The notes under the pieces are model-generated. The model worked only from the letters and a program-made list of their open reading frames with translations. It had not been told where the DNA came from and did no database searches. A stretch of DNA of 64,000 nucleotides, taken from positions 4,333 through 68,332 of the forward strand of contig JAWOJB010000025.1 in the NCBI GenBank assembly GCA_046484325.1, given 5' to 3'. The position numbers and the translations under genes were made by a program. This document shows positions 10,735 to 54,290 of this stretch, piece after piece (within the stretch, counting starts at the first letter, position 1; the number at the start of each line of letters is the position of its first letter). The DNA is from Acidimicrobiia bacterium. Lineage in GTDB: Bacteria > Actinomycetota > Acidimicrobiia > Spongiisociales > ZC4RG35.

Positions 10735-11883
10735 TCACAGGCCGAGCGAGCGGCCGATGATCTCCTTCATGATCTCGGTCGTGCCCCCGTAGATCGTCTG
10801 CACCCTGGCATCCCGGTAGGCCCGGGCGATCGGGTACTCCTCCATGTAACCCCAGCCTCCGAACATCTGGAGGCAGGAGTCGATCACCCGCTTCTCCAGC
10901 TCGGTGCACCACCACTTCCCTTTCGCCGCCTCCTCGGCCGTCAACTCCCCGTCGCTGAGGGCCAGGATGGAGCGGTCGACGTATGCCCGGGCCACGTCGA
11001 GCTCGGTGCGCAGCTCCGCCATCCGGTGTTTCACGACCTGGAACGAACCGATCGGCGAGCCGAAGGCCCGGCGTTCCCGCACGTAGTCGAGCGTCCACCC
11101 GAACGCCGCCTCGGCGTGGGCGAGGGAACCGACGGTGAGCGACAGCCGCTCCTGGGGCAGGTTCTCGACCAGGTGCACGAACCCCCGACCCTCCTCGCCG
11201 AGGAGGTTGGCGACCGGGACGTGGACGTCGTGGAAGAAGAGCTCGGAGGTGTCCTGGGCATGGAGCCCGATCTTGTCGAGGTTGCGACCGCGGGTGAACC
11301 CCTCCATCCCCTCCTCGACGACGAGCAAGCTCATCCCGGCATGGCGCCGGCTCGGATCGGTCTTCACCGCCGTGATCACCAGATCGGAGTTGATCCCGTT
11401 GGTGATGAAGGTCTTCGAGCCGTTCACGATGAAGTGGTCACCGTCGGGCACGGCGGTGGTGGCGATCCCGGCCAGGTCGGACCCGGCTCCCGGCTCGGTC
11501 ATGGCGATGGCCGACATCAGCTCCCCGGAAGCGAGCCCGGGGAGCCAGCGCTCCTTCTGCTCGTCGGTGGCGAGGTCGGTGAAGTAGGGGAGGCAGACGT
11601 CGTTGTGGAGGGTGATGCACATGCCCGACCCCATCACGTCGGCTCGCATCACCTCTTCGTCGATGACGGCGTTGAAGCGGAAGTCCCTGACCCCGCCGCC
11701 CCCGTATGCCTCAGGGACGGCCATCCCGAGCAGCCCCTGCTCCCCCGCCTTGCGGAACATTGCCTTGTCGACCCTCCCCGCCTCCTCCCAGGCCCGGTGG
11801 TGGGGAGCGATCTCCTTGTCCATGAACGAACGGGCGGTCGACCGGAAGATCTCGTGATCCTCGTCGAAGATGGTTCGTCGCAC
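10735..11883 (-). CDS. fadE: Acyl-CoA dehydrogenase
   Basis: GTG at 11883 lies 7 nt after GGGAGG. MTEPGAGSDLAG, FITNG and C-terminal YGGTTEIMKEIIGR motifs. Confidence 0.85.
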   Translation of the reverse strand: MRRTIFDEDHEIFRSTARSFMDKEIAPHHRAWEEAGRVDKAMFRKAGEQGLLGMAVPEAYGGGGVRDFRFNAVIDEEVMRADVMGSGMCITLHNDVCLPYFTDLATDEQKERWLPGLASGELMSAIAMTEPGAGSDLAGIATTAVPDGDHFIVNGSKTFITNGINSDLVITAVKTDPSRRHAGMSLLVVEEGMEGFTRGRNLDKIGLHAQDTSELFFHDVHVPVANLLGEEGRGFVHLVENLPQERLSLTVGSLAHAEAAFGWTLDYVRERRAFGSPIGSFQVVKHRMAELRTELDVARAYVDRSILALSDGELTAEEAAKGKWWCTELEKRVIDSCLQMFGGWGYMEEYPIARAYRDARVQTIYGGTTEIMKEIIGRSLGL

Positions 11884-11922
11884 GGCTACGCCTCCCTCGC
11901 CGGTCCGATCGGGCCTCGGGGC

Positions 11923-11958
11923 GGCCGGTCGCACCCGCCTGGACGAGTGCGACCGGCC
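11923..11958 (-). terminator. Perfect 12-bp GC-rich hairpin 16 nt downstream of the fadD stop (terminator-like; no U-tract)
   Basis: GGCCGGTCGCAC (11923-11934) is the exact reverse complement of GTGCGACCGGCC (11947-11958). Loop is 12 nt. Confidence 0.45.
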
Positions 11959-11974
11959 GGTGCCGGCAGCTCGC

Positions 11975-13762
11975 TCACTCCCCGTAGAGGCCGGCGATGG
12001 CGGTGGCGAAGCGCTCCGAGACCACGGCCCGCTTCACCTTGAGGGTGGGGGTCAGCTCCCCGCTCTCCACGGCGAAGTCCGTGGGCAGGATCGTGAACTT
12101 CCTGATTGCCTCGGCCTTCGACACGGCGGCATTCGCATCGTCGACCGCCTTCTGGATCTCGGCGACGAGGTCGGGGTCCTCGACCATATCGGCGACGGTC
12201 CCGATCTTGCCCTTCTCGGTCACCCAGCGGCCGAACGCCTCGGGGTCGATGGTTACGACGGCCGCGATGAACGGCTTGCCGTCGCCCACCACCATGCTCT
12301 GGCTGACGAGCTGGTGGGCGTTGATACGGTCCTCGAGCACGATCGGGGCGACGTTCTTGCCGCCGGCGGTGACGATGAGCTCCTTCTTGCGACCGGTGAT
12401 CCGCAAGAACCCCTGCTCGTCGAGCTCGCCGATATCGCCGGAGTGGAACCACCCGCTCGGCTCGATCGCAGCCGCGGTGGCCTCGGGGTTCTGCCAGTAG
12501 CCCTGGAAGACCCCGCATCCCTTGATGAGGATCTCGCCGTCGTCGGCGATCCGCACGGCCGTGTCCGGGGCAGGGCGCCCGACGGTGCCGATCTCGATCT
12601 CCCGGGGAGAGTTGTAGGTCGAGGCGGCGGTCGTCTCGGTGAGCCCGTATCCCTCGAGCACCAGCAACCCGATGCCGTTGAAGAAGTGGCCGAGGCGCTC
12701 GCCGAGGGCTGCACCGCCCGAGACCGAGTAGCGGAGGCGCTCGCCGAAGACGTGGCGGAGCTTGGAGTAGACCAGCTTGTCGAAGATCCCGTGCAGGATC
12801 TTGGTCATGAGCGGCGTGCTCCCCGACTGCTGGCCCCTCGAGTAGGCGATCGCCACATCGGCGGCCTTGTCGAAGATCTTGCCCTTGCCGTCGTCCGCCG
12901 CCTTCTGGCGGGCGCCGTTGTAGATCTTTTCGAACACCCTCGGCACTGCGAAGACGAACCAGGGCTTGGCCATCCCCAGCTCCTCGGTGAGGGCCGGGAT
13001 CCCGGTCGAGTAGGCGATCCGCATCCCGTTCATCACGCACGCCACCTGGACGACCCTGGCGAAGATGTGCGCGAGAGGCAGGAACATGAGGTTCGTCTCG
13101 CCCGCCTTGATCACGTCGCCCAGGTCCTGGGAGACGTGGCGGCTGATCTGCAGGAAGTTGCCGTGCGTGATGATGCACCCCTTGGGGCGCCCGGTGGTTC
13201 CCGACGTGTACACAAGTGTGGCGAGGTCGCTCTGGGAGAGCCCGCCGGCCCGCTGCAGAACCTCGTCGTCGGTGATCCCCTGCCCGGCGGCGATGATGGC
13301 GTCGAGGCCCCCGGACTCGAGCGAGAAGTCATGGGGGCAGGTGCCCAGCGCCCCGGCCCGCTCCTTGTACACCGCCTGCAACTCGTCGGTGGCGCACACG
13401 ATGGCCTGGGCGCCGGAGTCGCCGATGATCCACTCGACCTGCTCGGCCGAGGAGGTCTCGTAGATGGTGACGGTGGCGCACCCGGCCGCCCAGATCGCGT
13501 AGTCCAGGAGGGTGAACTCGAGGCGAGTGGGCATGAAGATGGCAATCCGGCTGCCCGGCTCGATCCCGAGTGCCACGAACCCGGCCGCGATCCTCCGGAC
13601 CTTCGACGCGAAATCGGCGGTCGAGACGTCGACGAAGCGGTCGCCCTCCCGGTAGGCCAGGGCTGCCCGATTGGGATGGTTCGCCTCGTGCTCCCACAAC
13701 GACGTGGTGAGGTTCTCGGCGGGATCGATCTCGGCCAGCGGTGGCCTGCTGTACTCACGCAT
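11975..13762 (-). CDS. fadD: Long-chain fatty-acid--CoA ligase (AMP-dependent synthetase)
   Basis: 595-aa ORF with the AMP-binding signature YTSGTTGRPKG and later GWFHSGDIG and TGRKKELI motifs. Confidence 0.85.
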   Translation of the reverse strand: MREYSRPPLAEIDPAENLTTSLWEHEANHPNRAALAYREGDRFVDVSTADFASKVRRIAAGFVALGIEPGSRIAIFMPTRLEFTLLDYAIWAAGCATVTIYETSSAEQVEWIIGDSGAQAIVCATDELQAVYKERAGALGTCPHDFSLESGGLDAIIAAGQGITDDEVLQRAGGLSQSDLATLVYTSGTTGRPKGCIITHGNFLQISRHVSQDLGDVIKAGETNLMFLPLAHIFARVVQVACVMNGMRIAYSTGIPALTEELGMAKPWFVFAVPRVFEKIYNGARQKAADDGKGKIFDKAADVAIAYSRGQQSGSTPLMTKILHGIFDKLVYSKLRHVFGERLRYSVSGGAALGERLGHFFNGIGLLVLEGYGLTETTAASTYNSPREIEIGTVGRPAPDTAVRIADDGEILIKGCGVFQGYWQNPEATAAAIEPSGWFHSGDIGELDEQGFLRITGRKKELIVTAGGKNVAPIVLEDRINAHQLVSQSMVVGDGKPFIAAVVTIDPEAFGRWVTEKGKIGTVADMVEDPDLVAEIQKAVDDANAAVSKAEAIRKFTILPTDFAVESGELTPTLKVKRAVVSERFATAIAGLYGE

Positions 13763-13834
13763 GAAGGCTCCTCCTCCGGGGGTGGCACGAGCCTACCGAT
13801 TACGAGGCCCGACCGGCCAGGGGCATCCGGCCCC

Positions 13835-14980
13835 TCAGGAGTCGCCTGCTCGCCGCGCAGTGCGCGCCTCGAGCAGGGTTTCGATCTCGCCTTCGCCGAA
13901 CCCGGCCGAGGCCAGCACCTCCTCGGTGTGGGTTCCCGGTGCCGGAGGGGGGATCGGCGATCGTCGGGGATGGGCGGAGAACCGGGGCGCCGGGCCCGGC
14001 TGCTCGACGTCACCCACCGGCACGAACGTCTCACGTGCGACGAGATGGGGGTGGGCCACCGCCTCGTCCAACGACATCACGGGGGCGACGCAGGCATCGG
14101 TGCCGGCGAACACAGCCACCCATTCTTCTCGGGTCCGCCCACGAAAGGCCTCCTCGAACCTGGCTCGCAACGCCGGCCAGCCGGACACGTCGAGCTGGGC
14201 GGGCACCTCGAGCGGGTCGATCTCGAGGCCGGCGAGCAGCTCGGCGAAGAACTGCGGCTCGAGCGCACCCACCGCCATCGCCCGCCCATCGGCGGTCATG
14301 TACGTGTCATAGAAGGGGGCGCCACCGTCCAGCAGGTTCACGCCCCGCCGATCGTGCCAGAACCCCCACGAGCGCAGCTCGAACGTCGGCTGCATCAGCA
14401 GGGCGGCGCCGTCGACCATGGCGGCGTCGACCACCTGGCCCCGACCCGAGCCCCGGGATTCGAGCAAGGCCGCCACGATCCCGAACGCCAGCAGCATGCC
14501 TCCGCCCCCGAAGTCGCCGACGAGGTTGAGCGGGGGTACCGGCCGCTCTCCCCCACGGCCGATGGCATGGAGGGCACCCGTGAGGGCGATGTAGTCGATG
14601 TCGTGCCCGGCGGTCTTCGCCAGCGGCCCGTCCTGACCCCAGCCGGTCATCCGCCCATAGACCAGTTGCGGGTTGCGCCCCAGACAGACCTCTGGGCCGA
14701 GCCCGAGGCGCTCGGCCACGCCCGGGCGGTACCCCTCGATGAGCGCATCGGAGCGCTCGACCAGACGGAGCACCACCTCCACCCCTTCGGGCCGCTTGAG
14801 GTCGATGACGATCGACCGGCGGCCGCGCCGAGACGGGTTGGGAATGGGGAGCGAGCCCTCGGAGGGCCGCTCGACCATCACGACGTCGGCACCCTGGTCG
14901 GCGAGGACCATCCCGCAGAATGGGCCGGGACCGATCCCGGCCAGCTCGACGACATGAATGCCCGAAAGGGGTCCCGACAT
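13835..14980 (-). CDS. Family III CoA-transferase / alpha-methylacyl-CoA racemase-like
   Basis: In-frame ATG at 14980 (MSGPLSGIHVVELAGIGPGPFCGM) inside track ORF 13835..15949. ALIEGYRPGV and GHDIDYIALTGAL patterns typical of the CaiB/BaiF/Mcr family. Confidence 0.8.
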   Translation of the reverse strand: MSGPLSGIHVVELAGIGPGPFCGMVLADQGADVVMVERPSEGSLPIPNPSRRGRRSIVIDLKRPEGVEVVLRLVERSDALIEGYRPGVAERLGLGPEVCLGRNPQLVYGRMTGWGQDGPLAKTAGHDIDYIALTGALHAIGRGGERPVPPLNLVGDFGGGGMLLAFGIVAALLESRGSGRGQVVDAAMVDGAALLMQPTFELRSWGFWHDRRGVNLLDGGAPFYDTYMTADGRAMAVGALEPQFFAELLAGLEIDPLEVPAQLDVSGWPALRARFEEAFRGRTREEWVAVFAGTDACVAPVMSLDEAVAHPHLVARETFVPVGDVEQPGPAPRFSAHPRRSPIPPPAPGTHTEEVLASAGFGEGEIETLLEARTARRAGDS

Positions 14981-15007
14981 GGAGCGGGACGGTAGTGCGG
15001 GTGCGCC

Positions 15008-16582
15008 GTGCGTCGTGCGCCGTGCCCAGTGCCCTCCCCGCAGTCGGCAATCCGCACTACGGGTACGCTCACGCGGCTGCGGTCCGAGGAGGCCCCCATC
15101 ATCACCCGTTCCAGCGGCGTTCTGTTGCACCCGACCTCCCTGCCCGGTCAGGGCGGGATCGGCGAGCTCGGTGGCGCGGCCCACCGCTTCGTCGAGGTGC
15201 TCGCCGGCATGCGCCAGTCCTGGTGGCAGATGCTCCCCGTGGGACCGACCGGGTTCGCCGACTCCCCGTACCAGTCGCCCTCGACCTTCGCGGGCAACCC
15301 GCTCCTCGTCGACCTCGTCGCCCTCGCCGACGAAGGTCTGCTCGAGGCGGACGAGCTGGCGCCGCTCACCGGCCTCCCCATGGACCGGGTCGACTACGGC
15401 GAGGTGATCCCGATCCGGAGGGGGCTTCTCGACCTCGCCGCCGACCGATTCCTCGCCGAGCGGCGACGGCGGCGCGAGCTCGGGCGCTTCCGGGAGGCCC
15501 ACGGCCCCGTGTGGCTCGACGAGTATGCCCTGTTCGCGGCGCTCAAGCAGGCCCACGACCTGCGGGAATGGACCAGCTGGGAACCGGATCTGGTATCGAG
15601 ACAACCCGAGGCCCTCGATGCTGCCCGTCGCGAGCTCCGCACCGAGATCCGCCGCCACGAGGTGATCCAGTTTCTCTTCCGGCGGCAGTGGGCCGAGCTC
15701 CGCCGGGTCTGCGCCGCCCACGGCATCCGGCTCATCGGCGACCTGCCGATCTTCGTGGCCCACGACTCGGCCGAGGTCTGGGCCAACCCGCACCTGTTCT
15801 TCCTCGACGGAGACGGCCGGCCGACCGTGGTGGCCGGCGTGCCACCCGACTACTTCAGCGAGACCGGCCAGCGCTGGGGCAACCCGCTGTACCGCTGGAC
15901 CCGGCATCGCGCCGATGGGTTCACCTGGTGGATGGCCCGGCTCCGGCACGTCTTCTCAATGTTCGACCTCGTCCGGGTCGACCACTTCCGCGGGTTCGCC
16001 GGCTACTGGGAGATCCCCGCCTCCGAGCCCACGGCCGTGAAGGGCCGATGGGTGAAGGCCCCGGGGCGCGAGCTCTTCGACGCCTGCCTGGCCGGGTTCG
16101 ACGACCTCCCGGTCATCGCCGAGGACCTGGGCGTCATCACCGAGGACGTCGAGGAGTTGCGCGACCGCTACGGATTCCCCGGCATGAAGGTCCTGCAGTT
16201 CGGGTTCGGGTTCGACAGCGAACATCACCCGGGTGCCGTGCGCGAGCGGGTGATCGTCTACACAGGCACGCACGACAACGACACCACCCTCGGCTGGTTC
16301 TCGGATCCCGCCTACGCCGAGGAACAGGCCGCCGCCCTGAAGTTCACGGACACCGACGGCTCGGAGTTCAACTGGGACCTGATGCGCGTGGCCATGGGCT
16401 CGGTGGCCGAGACTGCGATCGTGCCGCTCCAGGACGTGCTCGGACTGGGATCCGAGGCCCGGATGAACACCCCAGGCGTCCCGTCGGGAAACTGGGGCTG
16501 GCGGTTCGACTGGGAGCAGCTGACCCCCGACATCGCCGAGCGGTTCCGGGCGCTCACCGAGGAGACCGGCCGGGCCCGCTAG
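15008..16582 (+). CDS. malQ: 4-alpha-glucanotransferase (amylomaltase); start uncertain
   Basis: SGVLLHPTSLPG, DSPYQSPS and GTHDNDT motifs. Homology begins about 30 codons after the GTG at 15008. A GAGGAGG at about 15086 suggests a later, non-canonical start. Confidence 0.85.
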   Translation: MRRAPCPVPSPQSAIRTTGTLTRLRSEEAPIITRSSGVLLHPTSLPGQGGIGELGGAAHRFVEVLAGMRQSWWQMLPVGPTGFADSPYQSPSTFAGNPLLVDLVALADEGLLEADELAPLTGLPMDRVDYGEVIPIRRGLLDLAADRFLAERRRRRELGRFREAHGPVWLDEYALFAALKQAHDLREWTSWEPDLVSRQPEALDAARRELRTEIRRHEVIQFLFRRQWAELRRVCAAHGIRLIGDLPIFVAHDSAEVWANPHLFFLDGDGRPTVVAGVPPDYFSETGQRWGNPLYRWTRHRADGFTWWMARLRHVFSMFDLVRVDHFRGFAGYWEIPASEPTAVKGRWVKAPGRELFDACLAGFDDLPVIAEDLGVITEDVEELRDRYGFPGMKVLQFGFGFDSEHHPGAVRERVIVYTGTHDNDTTLGWFSDPAYAEEQAAALKFTDTDGSEFNWDLMRVAMGSVAETAIVPLQDVLGLGSEARMNTPGVPSGNWGWRFDWEQLTPDIAERFRALTEETGRAR

Positions 16583-38764: not shown

Positions 38765-39362
38765 GGAACGGTTCCCCGCCGATCCCCTCCCAGACGAACC
38801 GGGTGAGCTCGACCACGAGGGATTGGCGGTCGAGCAGCCCCTCCGGCCGGTACCACCGCTCGATGGCGTTGAGGATCGAGAGCACGAAGATGGCGGCGAG
38901 CTTCGGGTCGAGCCCGGCCCGGAACGTCCCGGAGCCGATCCCCCGCCGGATCACGTCCCGGAAGGCCGATTCGTACCGGTCACGGGCCTCGATGACCCGG
39001 GCGCGCCGGTCGTCGTCGAGGGCATCGGCCTCGTAGAGGAAGGTCCGCACCTCGTCCCGATGGTCGAGGACGACGGCGACATGGCCGGCGAGCAGGGACC
39101 GGAACTGATCCTCGGGCCGGCCGGGCCCGGCAAGGGCGGCGTCGGCGGCGGCCTGGAACAGGACGGCACCGCGTTCGACCACCTCGACGAGCAGCTCCTC
39201 CTTCGAGCCGACGTGGGAGTACAGCGACGACCCCAGCAGCCCGAGCTCGCGGCCGAGGTCGCGCATCGAGGTGCCGTGGTAGCCCCGCTCGGCGAAGAGC
39301 CGGCCGGCAGCTCGGACCACGTCCTCCCGGCTGTTGCGGACGGCGGCCGCCCCTCGGCTCAT
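38754..39362 (-). CDS. paaR: TetR-family transcriptional regulator, last gene of the paa operon (PaaR-like)
   Basis: ATG at 39362 overlaps the paaE stop (ATGA). HTH region GYHGTSMRDLGRELGLLGSSLYSHVGSKEEL. Confidence 0.8.
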   Translation of the reverse strand: MSRGAAAVRNSREDVVRAAGRLFAERGYHGTSMRDLGRELGLLGSSLYSHVGSKEELLVEVVERGAVLFQAAADAALAGPGRPEDQFRSLLAGHVAVVLDHRDEVRTFLYEADALDDDRRARVIEARDRYESAFRDVIRRGIGSGTFRAGLDPKLAAIFVLSILNAIERWYRPEGLLDRQSLVVELTRFVWEGIGGEPFPTG

Positions 39363-40429
39363 CGGCGGTCGAAGTCGACCGAGACGCGATCGCCGGTCGG
39401 GTGGGCCTGGCAGGTGAGGATGTAACCCGCGGACACCTCGGCGTCGGTGAGGGCGTAGTTCTTCGTCATCGCCACCTCGCCCTCCACGATCGTGGCCTTG
39501 CACGAGGCACACATCCCGCCCTTGCACGAGTAGGGGAGCTCGCGCCGGACCCGGAGGGCGGCGTCGAGGATGGCGGTGGCCGGATCCATCCGGGTGGTGG
39601 AGACCCGGCCGTCGAGGACGAAGCTGAGCTCCACCGCCCCCTCCCCGACGCCGGGCTCGGGGGGCAGCAGCGCCGGGTCGATCGGGCCGGCGAAGAACAG
39701 CTCGTCCCGCACCGAACCCGCATCCACGCCCTGCTCCTCGAGCACCCGCCGGGCGGTCGTCACGAGCTCGTGCGGACCGCACAGGAACCACCGGTCGACG
39801 GTGCGGGGCGGCACCAGGGTGGCGAGGAGGTCGAGGAGCTTCGACTCGTCGATCCTGCCGTGGAAGAGCGGCAGCCCGCCGTCCTCCCGGCTCAGCACGT
39901 GGACGAGCTGGAACCGATCCGGATACCGGTCCTTGAGGCCCTCGAGCTCTTCGAGGAACATGACCGTGCGCGCCTCGCGGTTCCCGAAGACCAGTGTCCA
40001 GCGGCTGTGCGGCTCGGATTCGAGCGTCGTGGCGATCAACGACAGCACGGGGGTGATGCCCGAGCCCGCCGCCACCGCCGCATAGTGCCGGGAGGCGGTG
40101 GGTTCGGGATCGATCGTGAACTCCCCGGTGGGAGGGGCGACCTCGAGCACCTCGCCGGCGGCGAGCTCCGTCGTGGCGAAGGTCGAGAACGCTCCGCCCC
40201 GCAGTCGCTTCACGCCGATCCGCAGCTTCCCCGAGTTGGCGTTCACACAGATCGAGTAGCTGCGACGGACGTCCACACCGTCGACGAGGGCACGAACGGT
40301 GACGTGTTGACCCGGCAGGTACCGGAAGGTCTCCGACAACTCGGCGGGAACGTCGAAGGTGATCGAGACGGCCTCGTCGGTCTCGGGGGTGACCTCGGTG
40401 ATCCGGAGAGGGTGGAACTCGACGCTCAT
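39359..40429 (-). CDS. paaE: Phenylacetyl-CoA 1,2-epoxidase reductase subunit
   Basis: ATG at 40429 (MSVEFHPLRI) overlaps the paaD stop. RSYSIC FAD motif, GSGITP NAD motif, plant-type 2Fe-2S motif CKGGMCASCKA...C. Confidence 0.9.
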   Translation of the reverse strand: MSVEFHPLRITEVTPETDEAVSITFDVPAELSETFRYLPGQHVTVRALVDGVDVRRSYSICVNANSGKLRIGVKRLRGGAFSTFATTELAAGEVLEVAPPTGEFTIDPEPTASRHYAAVAAGSGITPVLSLIATTLESEPHSRWTLVFGNREARTVMFLEELEGLKDRYPDRFQLVHVLSREDGGLPLFHGRIDESKLLDLLATLVPPRTVDRWFLCGPHELVTTARRVLEEQGVDAGSVRDELFFAGPIDPALLPPEPGVGEGAVELSFVLDGRVSTTRMDPATAILDAALRVRRELPYSCKGGMCASCKATIVEGEVAMTKNYALTDAEVSAGYILTCQAHPTGDRVSVDFDRR

Positions 40430-40971
40430 AGGTGCTTGAAGTGGTCGAATGGCTCGCCGCATGCCTCGCAGACCATGAGCGCCTTGCAGGCGGTGGAGCC
40501 GAAGTAGGAGACGAGCCGGATGTCGTCGGTAGCGCAGCGGGGGCAGAGGACCGGGCCGGGGTCGCCGACCGGGCCCGGCGGGGCGATGCCGTACCCGGCC
40601 AGCTTCCGGCGCCCCTCCTCGCTCATCCAGTCGGTGGTCCAGGCGGGGGCGTAGACGGTGTCGACCCGCACCCGGGTGAAGCCGGCCTCACCCAGGGCCT
40701 TGTGCACGTCGCGGGTGATGGTCTCCATCGCCGGGCATCCCGAGTAGGTGGGGGTGATCGTGACGACGACCTCGCCCCCGTCGACCGCGACCCCACGCAG
40801 GATGCCCAAGTCCTCGACGGTGAGCACCGGGATCTCGGGATCGACGACCGTGGCGAGGGCCTCACGAGCCCGCTGCTCGTCGCTCGTGGTTTGTCCCCCG
40901 GCCGACAGGCTGGGCGAAGGGGCCCCCGGCGCCGCAGGCGACGGGGTAGGGGGACCGCTCCGCGTCACCAT
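40426..40971 (-). CDS. paaD: Phenylacetate degradation protein PaaD (DUF59/SUF-like plus C-terminal Cys cluster)
   Basis: VVDPEIPVLTVEDLG, TYSGCPA and C-terminal CPRC...CEAC. The start (ATG 40971 or GTG 40968) overlaps the paaC stop. Confidence 0.85.
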   Translation of the reverse strand: MVTRSGPPTPSPAAPGAPSPSLSAGGQTTSDEQRAREALATVVDPEIPVLTVEDLGILRGVAVDGGEVVVTITPTYSGCPAMETITRDVHKALGEAGFTRVRVDTVYAPAWTTDWMSEEGRRKLAGYGIAPPGPVGDPGPVLCPRCATDDIRLVSYFGSTACKALMVCEACGEPFDHFKHL

Positions 40972-41768
40972 GACTGCCCCGGGTACGACCGCTGCATCCA
41001 CTGCAGCTCGGCGAGGAGGTGCCCGAGGTGCTCGGTGTGGAAGCCGGTCCTCCCGCCCATCCGCTGATAGGGATCGGCGGGGCGGCTCAGGGTCGCCTCC
41101 TCGAGGACGGCGTCGACCCGCTCATCCCACGCCGGCCGGAGTGCCCCGGGCTCGACGGCGATGCCCTCCGACACCAGAGCCGCCTCGACCTCGTCTCCGG
41201 TGAACAGCTCGTCGGTGAACCGCCAGAGGTCGTCGATGGACCGCTGCATCCGCCGGTGGCTCTCGTCGGTGCCGTCGCCGAGCCGGATCACCCACGTCGA
41301 CGAATGGCGGAGGTGGTAACGCACCTCCTTGAGCGCCTTGGCCGCGATGCCGGCCAGCACCTCGTCGGCCGAGGACCCGAGCGCCTCCCACAGTCCGATC
41401 TGGTACGCATCCACCAGGAGCTGACGAGCCATGGTGTGGGCGAAGTCGCCGTTGGGCTGCTCGACCAGCAGCAGGTTGAGGTACTCCCGCTCCGACCGGA
41501 GGAACGCGAGATCGTCCTCGGACCGACCCTCGCCTTCGACCTCGCCGGCGTGGCGGTAGAGAGCCCGGGCCACGCCCAGGTGGTCGAGTCCGATGTTCGT
41601 GAGAGCGATGTCCTCCTCCAGTTCGGGAGCCTTGGACGTCCACTCGGCGAGCCGCTGGGCGAGCACGAGGTTGTCGTCGGCGAGGCGCAGGAGATGGGCC
41701 ACGCGAGGCTCCAGGGCCGGCGGAGGCGTGCCCTGAGGAGCGGAGGAGCGGGTGGAGGGCTCGGTCAT
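40965..41768 (-). CDS. paaC: Phenylacetyl-CoA 1,2-epoxidase structural subunit; alternative GTG start at 41837 would add 23 repeat-encoded codons
   Basis: LRLADDNLVLAQRLAEW...PELEEDIALTNIGLDHLG aligns to the PaaC N-terminus about 20 aa after the ATG at 41768. Confidence 0.85.
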   Translation of the reverse strand: MTEPSTRSSAPQGTPPPALEPRVAHLLRLADDNLVLAQRLAEWTSKAPELEEDIALTNIGLDHLGVARALYRHAGEVEGEGRSEDDLAFLRSEREYLNLLLVEQPNGDFAHTMARQLLVDAYQIGLWEALGSSADEVLAGIAAKALKEVRYHLRHSSTWVIRLGDGTDESHRRMQRSIDDLWRFTDELFTGDEVEAALVSEGIAVEPGALRPAWDERVDAVLEEATLSRPADPYQRMGGRTGFHTEHLGHLLAELQWMQRSYPGQSW

Positions 41769-41835
41769 GCGACGTGAGGCGTGGGACGTGGGACGCGAGA
41801 CGTGGGACGCGAGACGTGGGACGCGAGACGTGCTC
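41766..41835 (-). repeat. Ten tandem heptamers (plus strand CGYGNGA), including three perfect 14-mers CGTGGGACGCGAGA, that fill the paaB-paaC junction
   Basis: Plus-strand heptamers read directly: CATGCGA CGTGAGG CGTGGGA CGTGGGA CGCGAGA CGTGGGA CGCGAGA CGTGGGA CGCGAGA CGTGCTC. Perfect 14-mer x3 at 41787-41828. Confidence 0.9.
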
Positions 41836-42175
41836 ACATGTGCCCCACTTCATCGGGGATCTGGTAATAGGTGGCGTGGCGGTACGGCTTCTCGATCGAC
41901 TCGAAGAAGGCGTCGGCGTCGTCGGGGTCGGAGGCGGTGATCTCGGCGGACGGCACCACCCACACGCTGACACCTTCGACCCGGCGGGTGTAGACGTCGC
42001 GGGCGTTCTGGAGGGCGCTCTCGGCGTCGGGGGCATGGAGGCTCCCCGAGTGCACATGGCTCATCCCCCGACGTTGACGTACGAACACCTCCCACATCGG
42101 CCAGCCCCGCTGGTCGTCCGACCCGGCGATCTCGACCTCCTGCTCGCCTTCGATCTTGGGGACCGAGTAGGTCAT
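41834..42175 (-). CDS. paaB: Phenylacetyl-CoA 1,2-epoxidase subunit B
   Basis: 113-aa [29 protein letters not shown]...[16 protein letters not shown] closely parallels PaaB. The ATG overlaps the paaA stop. Confidence 0.9.
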
Positions 42176-52496: not shown

Positions 52497-54290
52497 TCAC
52501 CAGCCCTCGTAGACGTCGCGACCCTCGAGCGAGACCTGACCGCAGATCCGGCACACCCGACGGGCGATACCGCCCGTAGCGCCTCGCAGCTCGAACTCGT
52601 GGACGTGGCCGGCCTTCCGACCGAACAGCCCGAGCCTCCCGACCTTCTTGGACTCGGCGGCATGCCGGCCCGCGCCTCCATTGGATTCGGCCGGCACCGC
52701 CGCCACCGACGGTGCCTCGACCTCCGGGGGTGCCTCCACCACCTCCACCGCGGCGGCGGGCCGGAACATCCCCGGCGAAGGAACCGGTTCGGGCTGGGGC
52801 TCCCACAACGGCATCGGCTCGGGCTCGGCTTGGGGCTCGGCTTGCGCAACCGCAGCCTCCGCCGCTTCCGCCTCCGCCTGGGCCTCCGCAGCCGCCAATG
52901 CTTCCGCCTCCGCCCGGGCCGCCGCCTCCGCCGCTTCCGCCTCCGCCGCCGCCTGGGCCTCCGCGGCCACCAATGCTTCCGCCGCCGCTTGGGCCTCCGC
53001 AGCCGCCAATGCTTCCGCCTCCGCCAATGCTTCCGCCGCCTCCGCCGCTTCCGCCGCCGCCTGGGCCTCCGCAGCCGCCAATGCTTCCGCCTCCGCCCGG
53101 GCCGCCGCCTCCGCCGCCGCCGCTTCCGCCTCCGCAGCCGCCAGGGCCTCCGCAGCCGCCAATGCTTCCGCCTCCGCCAATGCTTCCGCCGCCTCCGCCG
53201 CTTCCACCGCCGCCTGGGCCTCCGCAGCCGCCAATGCTTCGGCCTCCGCCCGGGCCGCCGCCTCCGCCGCCGCTTGGGCCTCCGCCTCCGCCTGAGCCGC
53301 CGCCTGGGCCTCCGCAGCCGCCAATGCTTCCGCCGCCGCTTGGGCCTCCGTAGCCGCCAATGCTTCCGCCTCCGCCTCCGCCGCTTCCGCCTCCGCCTGG
53401 GCCTCCGCAGCCGCCAATGCTTCCGCAGCCGCCTGAGCCTCCGCCTCCGCCGCCTGGGCCTCCGCCTCCGCCTGGGCCGCAGCCGCCAATGCTTCCGCCT
53501 CCGCCCGGGCCGCCGCAGCCGCCGCTTCCGCCTCCGCCGCCGCCTGAGCCTCCGCCGCTTCCGCCGCCGCCTGAACCTCCGCCGCCGCCGCCTCCGCCGC
53601 TTCCGCCGCCGCCTGAACCTCCGCCTCCGCCTGGGCCGCCGCAGCCTCCGCCTCGGCGACCGACTCGGGCACTACCGCTGCCACCTGCTCAGGATCGGCA
53701 TGGGAGGCGAGATCGTCGCCCCCGACGGAAAAGGCCGGGGTGACCTCCTCGAAGACAACCGATGCCGTGGCCGACCAGGTCTCTGGCTGAGGTGGGCTGG
53801 GTGGCACGGCCTCGCTGGGCGACCAGGTAGGCACCCTCTCGGCGGATGGAGGGCTCAACTCGAGGCCCCCGCCTGGTTCGCCGGCGGCGACCGGTGCAGG
53901 GAGCGAGGGCTGGATCGGAGCCACCGGCGGAGCCGGGGCTGGCTCCGCCAGGGCCGGCGTGGGAAGCGGCTCCGCCGTCCCCGGAGCCTTACCCTTCTTC
54001 GAGAAGAACTTCCGCTTCTTGGTCAAGCGCTGGACGACCTCGTCGATGTGGGTCATGCCGCTGTAGGCGAAGCTCAGGGCATCGTCGGCGATGAAGACGA
54101 TCTGCTCCTCGCCGAGCGTGAAGCGGAATTGGTTGGAGACGATGCGTTCGATCCCGATCTCGTCCAGGCGCCACATCCCGAGGTCGCCTTCGGGGCCGGA
54201 GACCCTCAGGAAGACGTCCTCGACGTGGACGACCGCGGCGACACCCTCACCGGTCTCACCGGGCAGTTTCAGACGACCTGTGAATCGCAC
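52497..54290 (-). CDS. Modular protein of unknown function: ~100-aa N-terminal globular domain, basic patch, Pro-rich linker, ~270-aa Ala/Glu/Gln repeat, C-terminal HxH...CxxC motif
   Basis: Track ORF 52497..54296. GTG at 54290 lies 6 nt after GAGAGG. Non-repetitive N-terminal (RFTGRLKLPGETGEGVAAVVHVEDVFLRVSG...) and C-terminal (GHVHEFELRGATGGIARRVCRICGQVSLEGRDVYEGW) ends are in the same frame as the AEAQ repeat. No family recognised. Confidence 0.6.
   Translation of the reverse strand: MRFTGRLKLPGETGEGVAAVVHVEDVFLRVSGPEGDLGMWRLDEIGIERIVSNQFRFTLGEEQIVFIADDALSFAYSGMTHIDEVVQRLTKKRKFFSKKGKAPGTAEPLPTPALAEPAPAPPVAPIQPSLPAPVAAGEPGGGLELSPPSAERVPTWSPSEAVPPSPPQPETWSATASVVFEEVTPAFSVGGDDLASHADPEQVAAVVPESVAEAEAAAAQAEAEVQAAAEAAEAAAAEVQAAAEAAEAQAAAEAEAAAAAARAEAEALAAAAQAEAEAQAAEAEAQAAAEALAAAEAQAEAEAAEAEAEALAATEAQAAAEALAAAEAQAAAQAEAEAQAAAEAAARAEAEALAAAEAQAAVEAAEAAEALAEAEALAAAEALAAAEAEAAAAEAAARAEAEALAAAEAQAAAEAAEAAEALAEAEALAAAEAQAAAEALVAAEAQAAAEAEAAEAAARAEAEALAAAEAQAEAEAAEAAVAQAEPQAEPEPMPLWEPQPEPVPSPGMFRPAAAVEVVEAPPEVEAPSVAAVPAESNGGAGRHAAESKKVGRLGLFGRKAGHVHEFELRGATGGIARRVCRICGQVSLEGRDVYEGW
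52846..53660 (-). repeat. About 0.8 kb of nested imperfect tandem repeats (9/18-nt sub-units inside roughly 150-260-nt units) that encode the Ala/Glu/Gln tract
   Basis: The string ccaatgcttc occurs about 12 times and gcctccgcccgggccgcc about 4 times at irregular spacing of roughly 150-260 nt. Four reading frames carry overlapping track ORFs across this stretch. Confidence 0.9.

Follow-up and report, generated by a model that had tools for sequence, protein, structure and literature searches.

A heptamer microsatellite at the paaB–paaC junction of an Acidimicrobiia bacterium, with copy-number variation and a possible register-dependent coupling of the two genes

Prokaryotic long simple sequence repeats with a heptameric unit have been described as GGGAATC in Xanthomonas and as GGGGA(T/C)T, of the short tandemly repeated repetitive (STRR) type, in Nostoc PCC 7120 (Mrazek, Guo & Shah 2007, as cited in PMC4692102). 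These families are built on one 7-nt unit, spread genome-wide and mostly intergenic, lie 0–50 bp from the ends of open reading frames (ORFs) with a strand preference and occasional inverted pairs, and vary in length and sequence from strain to strain; Nostoc has at least one intra-operon case, pecE–pecF, and the proposed cause is polymerase slippage (PMC4692102). The TAACTGA repeats of marine Beggiatoaceae, Microcystis, Cyanothece and some Bacteroidetes are also intergenic heptamers, with an orientation bias set by stop codons, 7-nt-step insertions and deletions between sister strains, a patchy distribution over lineages and downstream genes that often lack a Shine–Dalgarno (SD) sequence (PMC4679880). 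Phase-variable contingency loci of host-adapted bacteria, such as those with tetra- and heptanucleotide simple sequence repeats (SSRs) in Haemophilus influenzae, have a perfect repeat, with a unit length indivisible by three, set between the start codon and the body of a gene, and slippage there shifts the reading register (PMC2651432). Here, we describe an array with likenesses to all of these, located in the 64,000-nt stretch of contig JAWOJB010000025.1 (Acidimicrobiia bacterium assembly GCA_046484325.1) that we analysed, hereafter the window. The array fills the spacer between paaB and paaC of a paa operon. We consider it probable that this is a hypermutable, slippage-driven heptamer microsatellite placed directly after a stop codon, in which the reading register governs the coupling of paaB to paaC.

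Several features set the arrays of this genome apart from the described systems. Unlike the Xanthomonas and Nostoc families, they belong to Acidimicrobiia and have other units (CACGTCN here, different ones in relatives), most of which cannot form G-quadruplexes. Placement 0–13 nt past a stop codon, together with a register bias, is not reported for those families in the literature searched. TAACTGA repeats lie mainly just upstream of starts, in a stop-containing orientation and in 2–6 copies (PMC4679880), whereas the arrays here lie just after stops, in a stop-free orientation and in up to 19 copies. Phase-variable SSR loci differ again, as the arrays here have an independent start downstream, occur in housekeeping operons of a free-living environmental host, and keep registers that appear constrained rather than exploited. 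What is new are the heptamer families of Acidimicrobiia, the polymorphism within the paa operon, the repeated colonisation of a single junction that was ancestrally an overlap, and the bias in register.

The original prediction, made from the letters of the window alone, had reported a tandem heptamer/14-mer repeat filling the paaB–paaC junction, and this repeat is real. Tandem Repeats Finder (TRF) detects it with period 7 and 8.9 copies. The 14-mer singled out at first, CGTGGGACGCGAGA, has exact plus-strand copies in tandem at 41787, 41801 and 41815, and a unit-by-unit scan allowing up to one mismatch recovers nine CGYGNGA units from 41766 to 41828, with one degenerate unit reaching the paaB stop. 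Read on the sense strand from the paaB stop to the ATG at 41768, the spacer consists of GCACGTC, then TCGCGTC and CCACGTC in alternation three times over, then CCACGCC, TCACGTC and a final GC. The array is far beyond chance, with a longest perfect period-14 self-match of 34 nt against a maximum of 13 among 200 dinucleotide shuffles of the window. It is a heptameric microsatellite, that is, a prokaryotic long simple sequence repeat, and shows all four features of this already-known class: a short unit in tandem, copy-number polymorphism in whole units, dispersed loci without conserved flanks, and mostly non-coding placement. Clustered regularly interspaced short palindromic repeats (CRISPR), a miniature inverted-repeat transposable element (MITE), a BOX element and a repetitive extragenic palindrome (REP) are ruled out as identities, the period being too short and a hairpin absent. 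The STRR heptamers of heterocystous cyanobacteria (CCCCAGT, TTGGTCA, CAACAGT and GGGGAYT) are ruled out as well, given the unit CACGTCN/CGCGTCC and a host that is an Acidimicrobiia metagenome-assembled genome (MAG). A search of the spacer against Rfam returned no family match at E values up to 1.

An exact-protein look-up with PaaB located the junction in two more assemblies, from Joint Genome Institute (JGI) samples 3300076001 and 3300075934. Both carry four 14-mers where the window has three, a 14-nt insertion, and otherwise differ from the window by 1–2 substitutions over 3.1–3.3 kb, with flanks 99.95% identical. Copy number at this junction, which the original prediction had expected to vary, does so between near-identical assemblies. 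On contig C36, the number of units in a perfect (TCTCACG)n array is 10, 12 or 13 among four assemblies, with three flank mismatches in 2 kb, while an imperfect 13-unit array between rpsJ and rplC is identical in all four. Perfect arrays vary, in steps the size of the perfect unit, and interrupted ones stay constant, as is typical of slipped-strand mispairing; from these sequences we infer replication slippage as the cause of the change in copy number. Searches for further alleles using the 245-aa and 290-aa forms of PaaC returned no record, and exact-protein look-ups for Adk, ArgH and GuaA likewise gave none. No sequencing run with the locus was found, as a 601-nt query matched runs holding 0.04 of its words and an 8-kb query matched none.

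The repair background of the lineage is also relevant to array stability. MutS is absent in 40 of 41 relatives, and no MutS domain is found in this genome either, while NucS is present in 35 of the 41. The mycobacterial NucS pathway is not known to correct insertion/deletion loops. In this MutS-less lineage such indels are probably left unrepaired, favouring instability of the arrays.

Across about 165 paaB–paaC junctions from relatives and metagenomes, paaB ends in ATGTGA in almost every case, and the overlapping GTG at the paaB stop is mostly no more than a few codons from the point where alignment of PaaC sets in. The nearest relatives on a PaaB+PaaC tree (L011, L122 and L041) have no spacer and a GTGA-overlap start; therefore, the spacer and its array were gained in the present lineage. 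In the three-copy allele of the window the old GTG lies 69 nt upstream of ATG 41768, in frame with it and with the interval open. In an N-terminal protein alignment, a PQG(T/M/S)-P motif found 9–10 residues past the start in relatives lies 10 residues past ATG 41768, so this ATG occupies the ancestral start position. In the four-copy allele the GTG lies 83 nt upstream and out of frame and the ATG-initiated ORF is unbroken, so PaaC there must come from the ATG, the sole start that is both compatible with this allele and retains the PQG motif. paaC thus most likely starts at ATG 41768, and its product aligns with those of relatives at 57–73% identity from residue 1–8 onward. A further GTG at 41702, the JGI gene call, is an unlikely sole start and was rejected as such, since it would cut off the conserved PQG segment.

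Two starts had been offered in the original prediction. ATG 41768, with the repeat as a spacer lacking an SD sequence, is the better supported, but the lack of an SD sequence, then called unusual, is common in this genome: of 196 unambiguous starts, 58 (30%) have an SD-like 4-mer ahead of them, compared with 15% for internal control codons, leaving about 70% of starts without one. The GTG at 41837 can serve only the three-copy allele and cannot be an obligatory start. With the start of paaC settled in this way, it becomes clear that arrays at junctions mislead automatic start prediction, as gene callers give three different paaC starts at such junctions, for proteins of 290, 267 or 245 aa.

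The original prediction overlooked the genome-wide extent of the repeat family. In the 2.45-Mb MAG (104 contigs, 70% G+C, 87% complete), TRF reports 40 arrays of period 7, compared with two of period 8 and eight of period 10. A unit scan finds 31 arrays of CGTGNGA (TCNCACG on the other strand) with 3–19 units each, the 14-mer above has 17 matches at up to one mismatch against three for a reversed control, and (CACGTCN)3 occurs 72 times. Further unit families are TGCGCAC, ACGGCGC and CAGCGCA. Array counts are lower bounds because long repeats break short-read assemblies; contigs end inside, or within about 85 nt of, arrays with 15–19 units at C7:33108–33212 and C25:13683–13815.

Nearly every array sits at a gene boundary, and about 17 of the 40 start 0–13 nt past a stop codon. 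Besides paaB–paaC, post-stop arrays are found at rpsJ–rplC, dnaK–grpE, secY–adk, adk–map and ilvB–ilvN, and upstream of argH and guaA. The C-rich strand is the mRNA strand in 12 of 12 post-stop CACGTCN arrays. This sense strand lacks ATG, GTG, TTG, stop codons and purine-rich SD-like stretches in any frame, whereas its complement contains GTG, TGA and GGGA/GAGA. Array orientation shows no association with local GC skew (13 versus 11), which links the bias to the upstream gene rather than to replication; a replication-strand cause was dropped on this ground. Neither target-site duplications nor conserved flanks were found around the arrays, whose flanks are unrelated gene ends and starts with only a generic NTGA common to the loci. 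The suggestion in the original prediction that the regular spacing reflects protein-binding half-sites for paa finds no support, the heptamer being present at some 30 unrelated loci including rpsJ–rplC and dnaK–grpE, and a paa-specific operator is ruled out for the same reason.

Other repeats lie close to some of these arrays. Three CACGTCN arrays directly precede a hairpin-bearing repeat, tttgtcccccacgcagtgggggaaggggc..., which is separate from them and not part of the array; it is found at C36:21250–21300, C98:6602–6660 and C16:16496–16540, and contigs C9 and C25 have additional copies. At C21:18885–18958 and C60:6545–6617, a (TCNCACG)n array is succeeded by a (CGTGNGA)n array, so that the two point in opposite directions. 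Such paired inverted arrays, ahead of argH and between secY and adk, could form long imperfect intergenic hairpins.

Termination–reinitiation is reported to require gene overlap or a very short distance: an added 14 nt cuts it by 40–80%, and 38 nt abolishes it (PMC10666635). Subunits of heteromeric complexes show an excess of gene overlaps (PMC10666635, PMC6728339), and PaaA, PaaB and PaaC belong to this class as subunits of one complex. For each post-stop array, we followed the ORF that begins at the start codon overlapping the upstream stop (NTGA) and recorded where its first stop falls. Loci were scored as relay when this ORF ends on the downstream start codon, as fusion when it is in frame with the downstream gene, and as third when it reads the remaining frame.

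Among 11 post-stop arrays before a co-directional gene in this genome, nine are relay, one is in frame and one is third. The relay TGA exactly overlaps or abuts the downstream start, as ATGA or GTGA, at rplC, adk, map, ilvN, argH and guaA, and the relay stop of grpE falls within 5 nt of the start. Fourteen comparable arrays from four of seven other genomes sampled, covering two unit families, divide into nine relay, four in frame and one third. The combined ratio of 18:5:2 departs from a one-third expectation both in its excess of relay (P = 9e-5 for at least 18 of 25) and in its shortage of third registers (P = 0.0035 for at most two of 25). Spaced paaB–paaC junctions of relatives in which PaaC is out of the GTG frame (n = 28) show the same preference, 22 in the relay frame versus six in the third (P = 0.002), and at 17 of these the stop of the old ORF has an exact overlap with an ATG or GTG that is in frame with PaaC. 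Register can persist while the repeat itself is replaced. In an 88%-identical relative (L327–L329, compared with C53:23041–24335) the ilvB–ilvN spacer is 64 nt rather than 46 and carries another heptamer family, ATGCGCC/GTGCGCG, with the same relay and an IlvN protein that is 100% identical. From these frames, we infer that array length is probably held by selection in a register that still passes ribosomes from paaB to paaC.

We propose the following course of events. A heptamer array would have inserted into an ancestrally overlapping ATGTGA junction in this lineage, with paaC now starting at ATG 41768. Ribosomes ending paaB would probably, judging by the frames, re-initiate at the overlapping old GTG and cross the array, and array length modulo 3 would then decide among three translational outcomes. 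With three copies, as in the window, the product is predicted to be an in-frame PaaC carrying 23 extra repeat-encoded residues ahead of MTEPS; this extension may be tolerated, because the length of the PaaC N terminus varies among relatives. With four copies, translation from the GTG would follow a relay ORF of 28 codons; its stop is the TGA inside gcATGAcc, in the +1 frame and overlapping the paaC ATG, and termination–reinitiation coupling would be restored. With two or five copies, an out-of-frame ORF of about 240 codons (about 720 nt) would run over the paaC start and is predicted to interfere with it; neither copy number is seen among the two alleles known.

GTGA is present at the paaB stop in all alleles, and ATGA ends the relay ORF of the four-copy allele, so this array-spanning ORF has 4-nt overlaps at both ends, similar to ATGA/TGATG coupling (PMC6728339, PMC10666635). 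Unlike direct-overlap coupling, the connection here would run through a putative intermediate, a short repeat-encoded ORF of variable length. At other loci, a third-frame ORF would run far into the next gene and occlude its start, as such ORFs meet few stops in GC-rich genes (first stops at +143 to +1845 nt). A fusion would add repeat-encoded residues, and the relay register alone would be neutral, with coupling kept.

The paaB–paaC junction has been colonised repeatedly among relatives. Period-7 arrays occur at 15 of 143 distinct junctions, with differing units (GAAGTCG, GCTGTCA, GGTACYT, GTTCACC, GAGTACT, CCCGTAT, GCCTCAC, AGTCTCA and others). Mapped on the PaaB+PaaC tree, array presence requires 14 state changes compared with 13–15 for shuffled labels; gains and losses are fast and independent. 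One junction (L129) holds the array of another (L128) at equal length, point-mutated and decayed. The unit at each junction is that of the genome's own dispersed family; (GAAGTCG)3, for example, occurs 81, 41 and 24 times in three genomes with GAAGTCG at paaB–paaC and almost nowhere else. (CACGTCN)3 arrays are patchy, present in 10 of 81 genomes of the family, and sister species within one genus (g5, g7 and g42) range from 0 to about 100 matches. This patchiness points to fast birth and death of the arrays, or to a mobile trans-acting cause. In the relative G013, a 441-kb sample contains only two period-7 arrays, its many pattern matches stemming from a few long arrays.

Several observations count against the reading of a slippage-driven array with register-dependent coupling. 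The copy-number alleles are assembled consensus sequences, not reads. NucS was not detected in this 87%-complete MAG, which makes its repair status uncertain. The window's own paa allele is an in-frame fusion rather than a relay, and the array on C32 stands in the unfavourable third register. The six control arrays that follow stops without a start-codon overlap divide 2:2:2, and a Fisher test of start-overlapping stops versus these few gives P = 0.15. The register statistics are built on simple gene frames called from G+C content at third codon positions (GC3), over 25 + 28 loci, not all of which are independent of one another phylogenetically. Junctions without arrays, taken as a genome-wide control, showed no relay preference; the choice of these loci was biased toward a downstream gene B in the frame of the upstream gene A, and the control was discarded as uninformative because of this selection bias. 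Finally, the model does not account for the dominance of one heptamer in a genome, nor for the frequent colonisation of paaB–paaC.

A broader version of the model would treat heptamer arrays in Acidimicrobiia operons as heritable, reversible three-state "gearboxes" that slippage shifts between a relay register with coupling, a fusion register with an N-extended product and an occluding register with less of the downstream subunit, so tuning subunit stoichiometry or pathway expression in populations. The genome-specific unit, patchy even among members of one genus, would then stem from a trans-acting factor, mobile by horizontal transfer, by which arrays are seeded or homogenised. We offer this as speculation and think it improbable.

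The readings that compete with register-dependent coupling are less likely still. The first, already present in the original prediction as a slipped-strand switch, makes the array an adaptive phase-variation contingency locus in which slippage of the 14-mer reversibly turns PaaC, and with it phenylacetate catabolism, on and off. Part of this stands: the junction does vary in 14-nt steps, a length indivisible by three, perfection makes the array highly mutable, and one of the three registers would send ribosomes some 720 nt out of frame over the paaC start. A simple on/off switch is nonetheless not what the alleles suggest, since PaaC is expected from both known ones, either by way of the ATG or in fused form, with the ATG ORF intact in each, and no off-register allele has been seen. 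Moreover, switching would make no sense in the housekeeping operons that carry the same repeat family (rpsJ–rplC, secY–adk–map, dnaK–grpE and ilvB–ilvN), and the register data resemble avoidance of an off state rather than its use. We give this explanation little credence.

A selected cis element is about equally doubtful. The array might serve as a Rho loading site, being C-rich, G-poor, unstructured, 60–80 nt long and placed just after a stop, or as a binding array for a genome-specific protein. The sense strand contains 32 C versus 12 G in 62 nt, and its secondary structure is absent, with an RNA fold of the spacer (z = −0.79) and DNA folds of the two strands (z = 0.04 and −0.95) no better than those of shuffles. 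The genome encodes rho, the strand bias is strict at 12 of 12, and each genome's own unit is common to many of its loci. Against such an element, close relatives differ in array length and even in the unit itself, with register alone conserved, and most relatives are array-free at the same junctions. C-richness is not general either, as the GAAGTCG junction arrays of relatives are purine-rich on the sense strand. Termination inside the S10, spc or paa operons would have polar effects, and ribosomes crossing the array, as the register data suggest, would not leave the RNA naked.

Still less likely is that the repeat is coding, with paaC translated solely from GTG 41837, the 23 repeat-encoded residues part of PaaC and four-copy alleles null. 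This GTG is the ancestral start, its upstream context is conserved, and the 69 nt that follow are open and in frame in the window; yet the frame-breaking four-copy allele is found in two independent assemblies with paaC intact and the rest of the operon identical, and the ATG falls exactly at the ancestral start position. In relatives, most arrays at the junction put what follows outside the GTG frame and precede a start of their own, often with an SD sequence, and the family as a whole is intergenic. An assembly artefact, in which the repeat or its copy difference arose from short-read assembly, has in its favour several contigs, among them C7 and C25, that end inside CACGTCN-family arrays and show the trouble that longer arrays give to assemblers, but it is barely credible for an array of 62–76 nt, shorter than usual reads, that recurs with identical flanks in two other independent assemblies, in a genome whose other arrays are found without a single base changed in up to four assemblies.

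The coordinates of the array and of the operon are collected in Table 1. The identities of PaaA, PaaB, PaaC, PaaD and PaaE all lie above the NCBIfam equivalog cut-offs. paaD and paaE complete the operon with overlapping junctions, and only paaB and paaC, set 65–79 nt apart in the two alleles, have no direct overlap between them.

Table 1. Features of the paa operon and the paaB–paaC junction, in window coordinates.
Feature	Coordinates	Strand	Evidence and remarks
Heptamer array, sense CACGTCN/CGCGTCC units, filling the paaB–paaC spacer	41771–41832	minus	TRF, unit scan
Perfect 14-mer core, the putative slipping part	41785–41832	minus	TRF period 14, 3.4 copies, 100% match
Old start GTG overlapping the paaB stop (GTGA)	41835–41837	minus	Ancestral paaC start in most relatives
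ATG, likeliest paaC start, context gcATGAcc	41766–41768	minus	Positional homology and compatibility with the four-copy allele
Internal in-frame GTG, GGAG 6 nt upstream	41700–41702	minus	JGI gene caller's paaC start (245 aa) in L039/L040, the two four-copy assemblies
paaA	42172–43131	minus	TIGR02156 at 521 bits; overlaps paaB by 4 nt
paaB, 113 aa	41834–42175	minus	TIGR02157 at 121.7 bits, above cut-off; stop TGA 41836–41834
paaC from ATG, 267 aa	40965–41768	minus	TIGR02158 at 309 bits; to 41837 if GTG is used
paaD	40426–41001	minus	TIGR02159 above cut-off
paaE	39359–40462	minus	TIGR02160 above cut-off

Two other repeats lie in the window. A second heptamer array (GTGCGCC/GTGCGTC/GTGCCCA) spans 15001–15032, beginning 5 nt past the TAG of a 1041-aa ORF (11870–14995). 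A 0.8-kb nested tandem repeat at 52846–53660 (TRF periods 6, 9, 18 and 36; CCGCCG/CCGCCT-rich) is unrelated to the heptamers.

Natural copy-number variation thus occurs inside the operon of a multi-subunit enzyme in an uncultured lineage. Most of the interest of the finding rests on the regularity of the register. The bias suggests that start codons overlapping an upstream stop remain active after a spacer has been inserted, and that selection would keep the relay register. If true, this would explain why genomes that are compact and rich in overlaps can accommodate growing repeats within essential operons, and the arrays would offer natural material for testing how termination–reinitiation depends on distance, a debated point.

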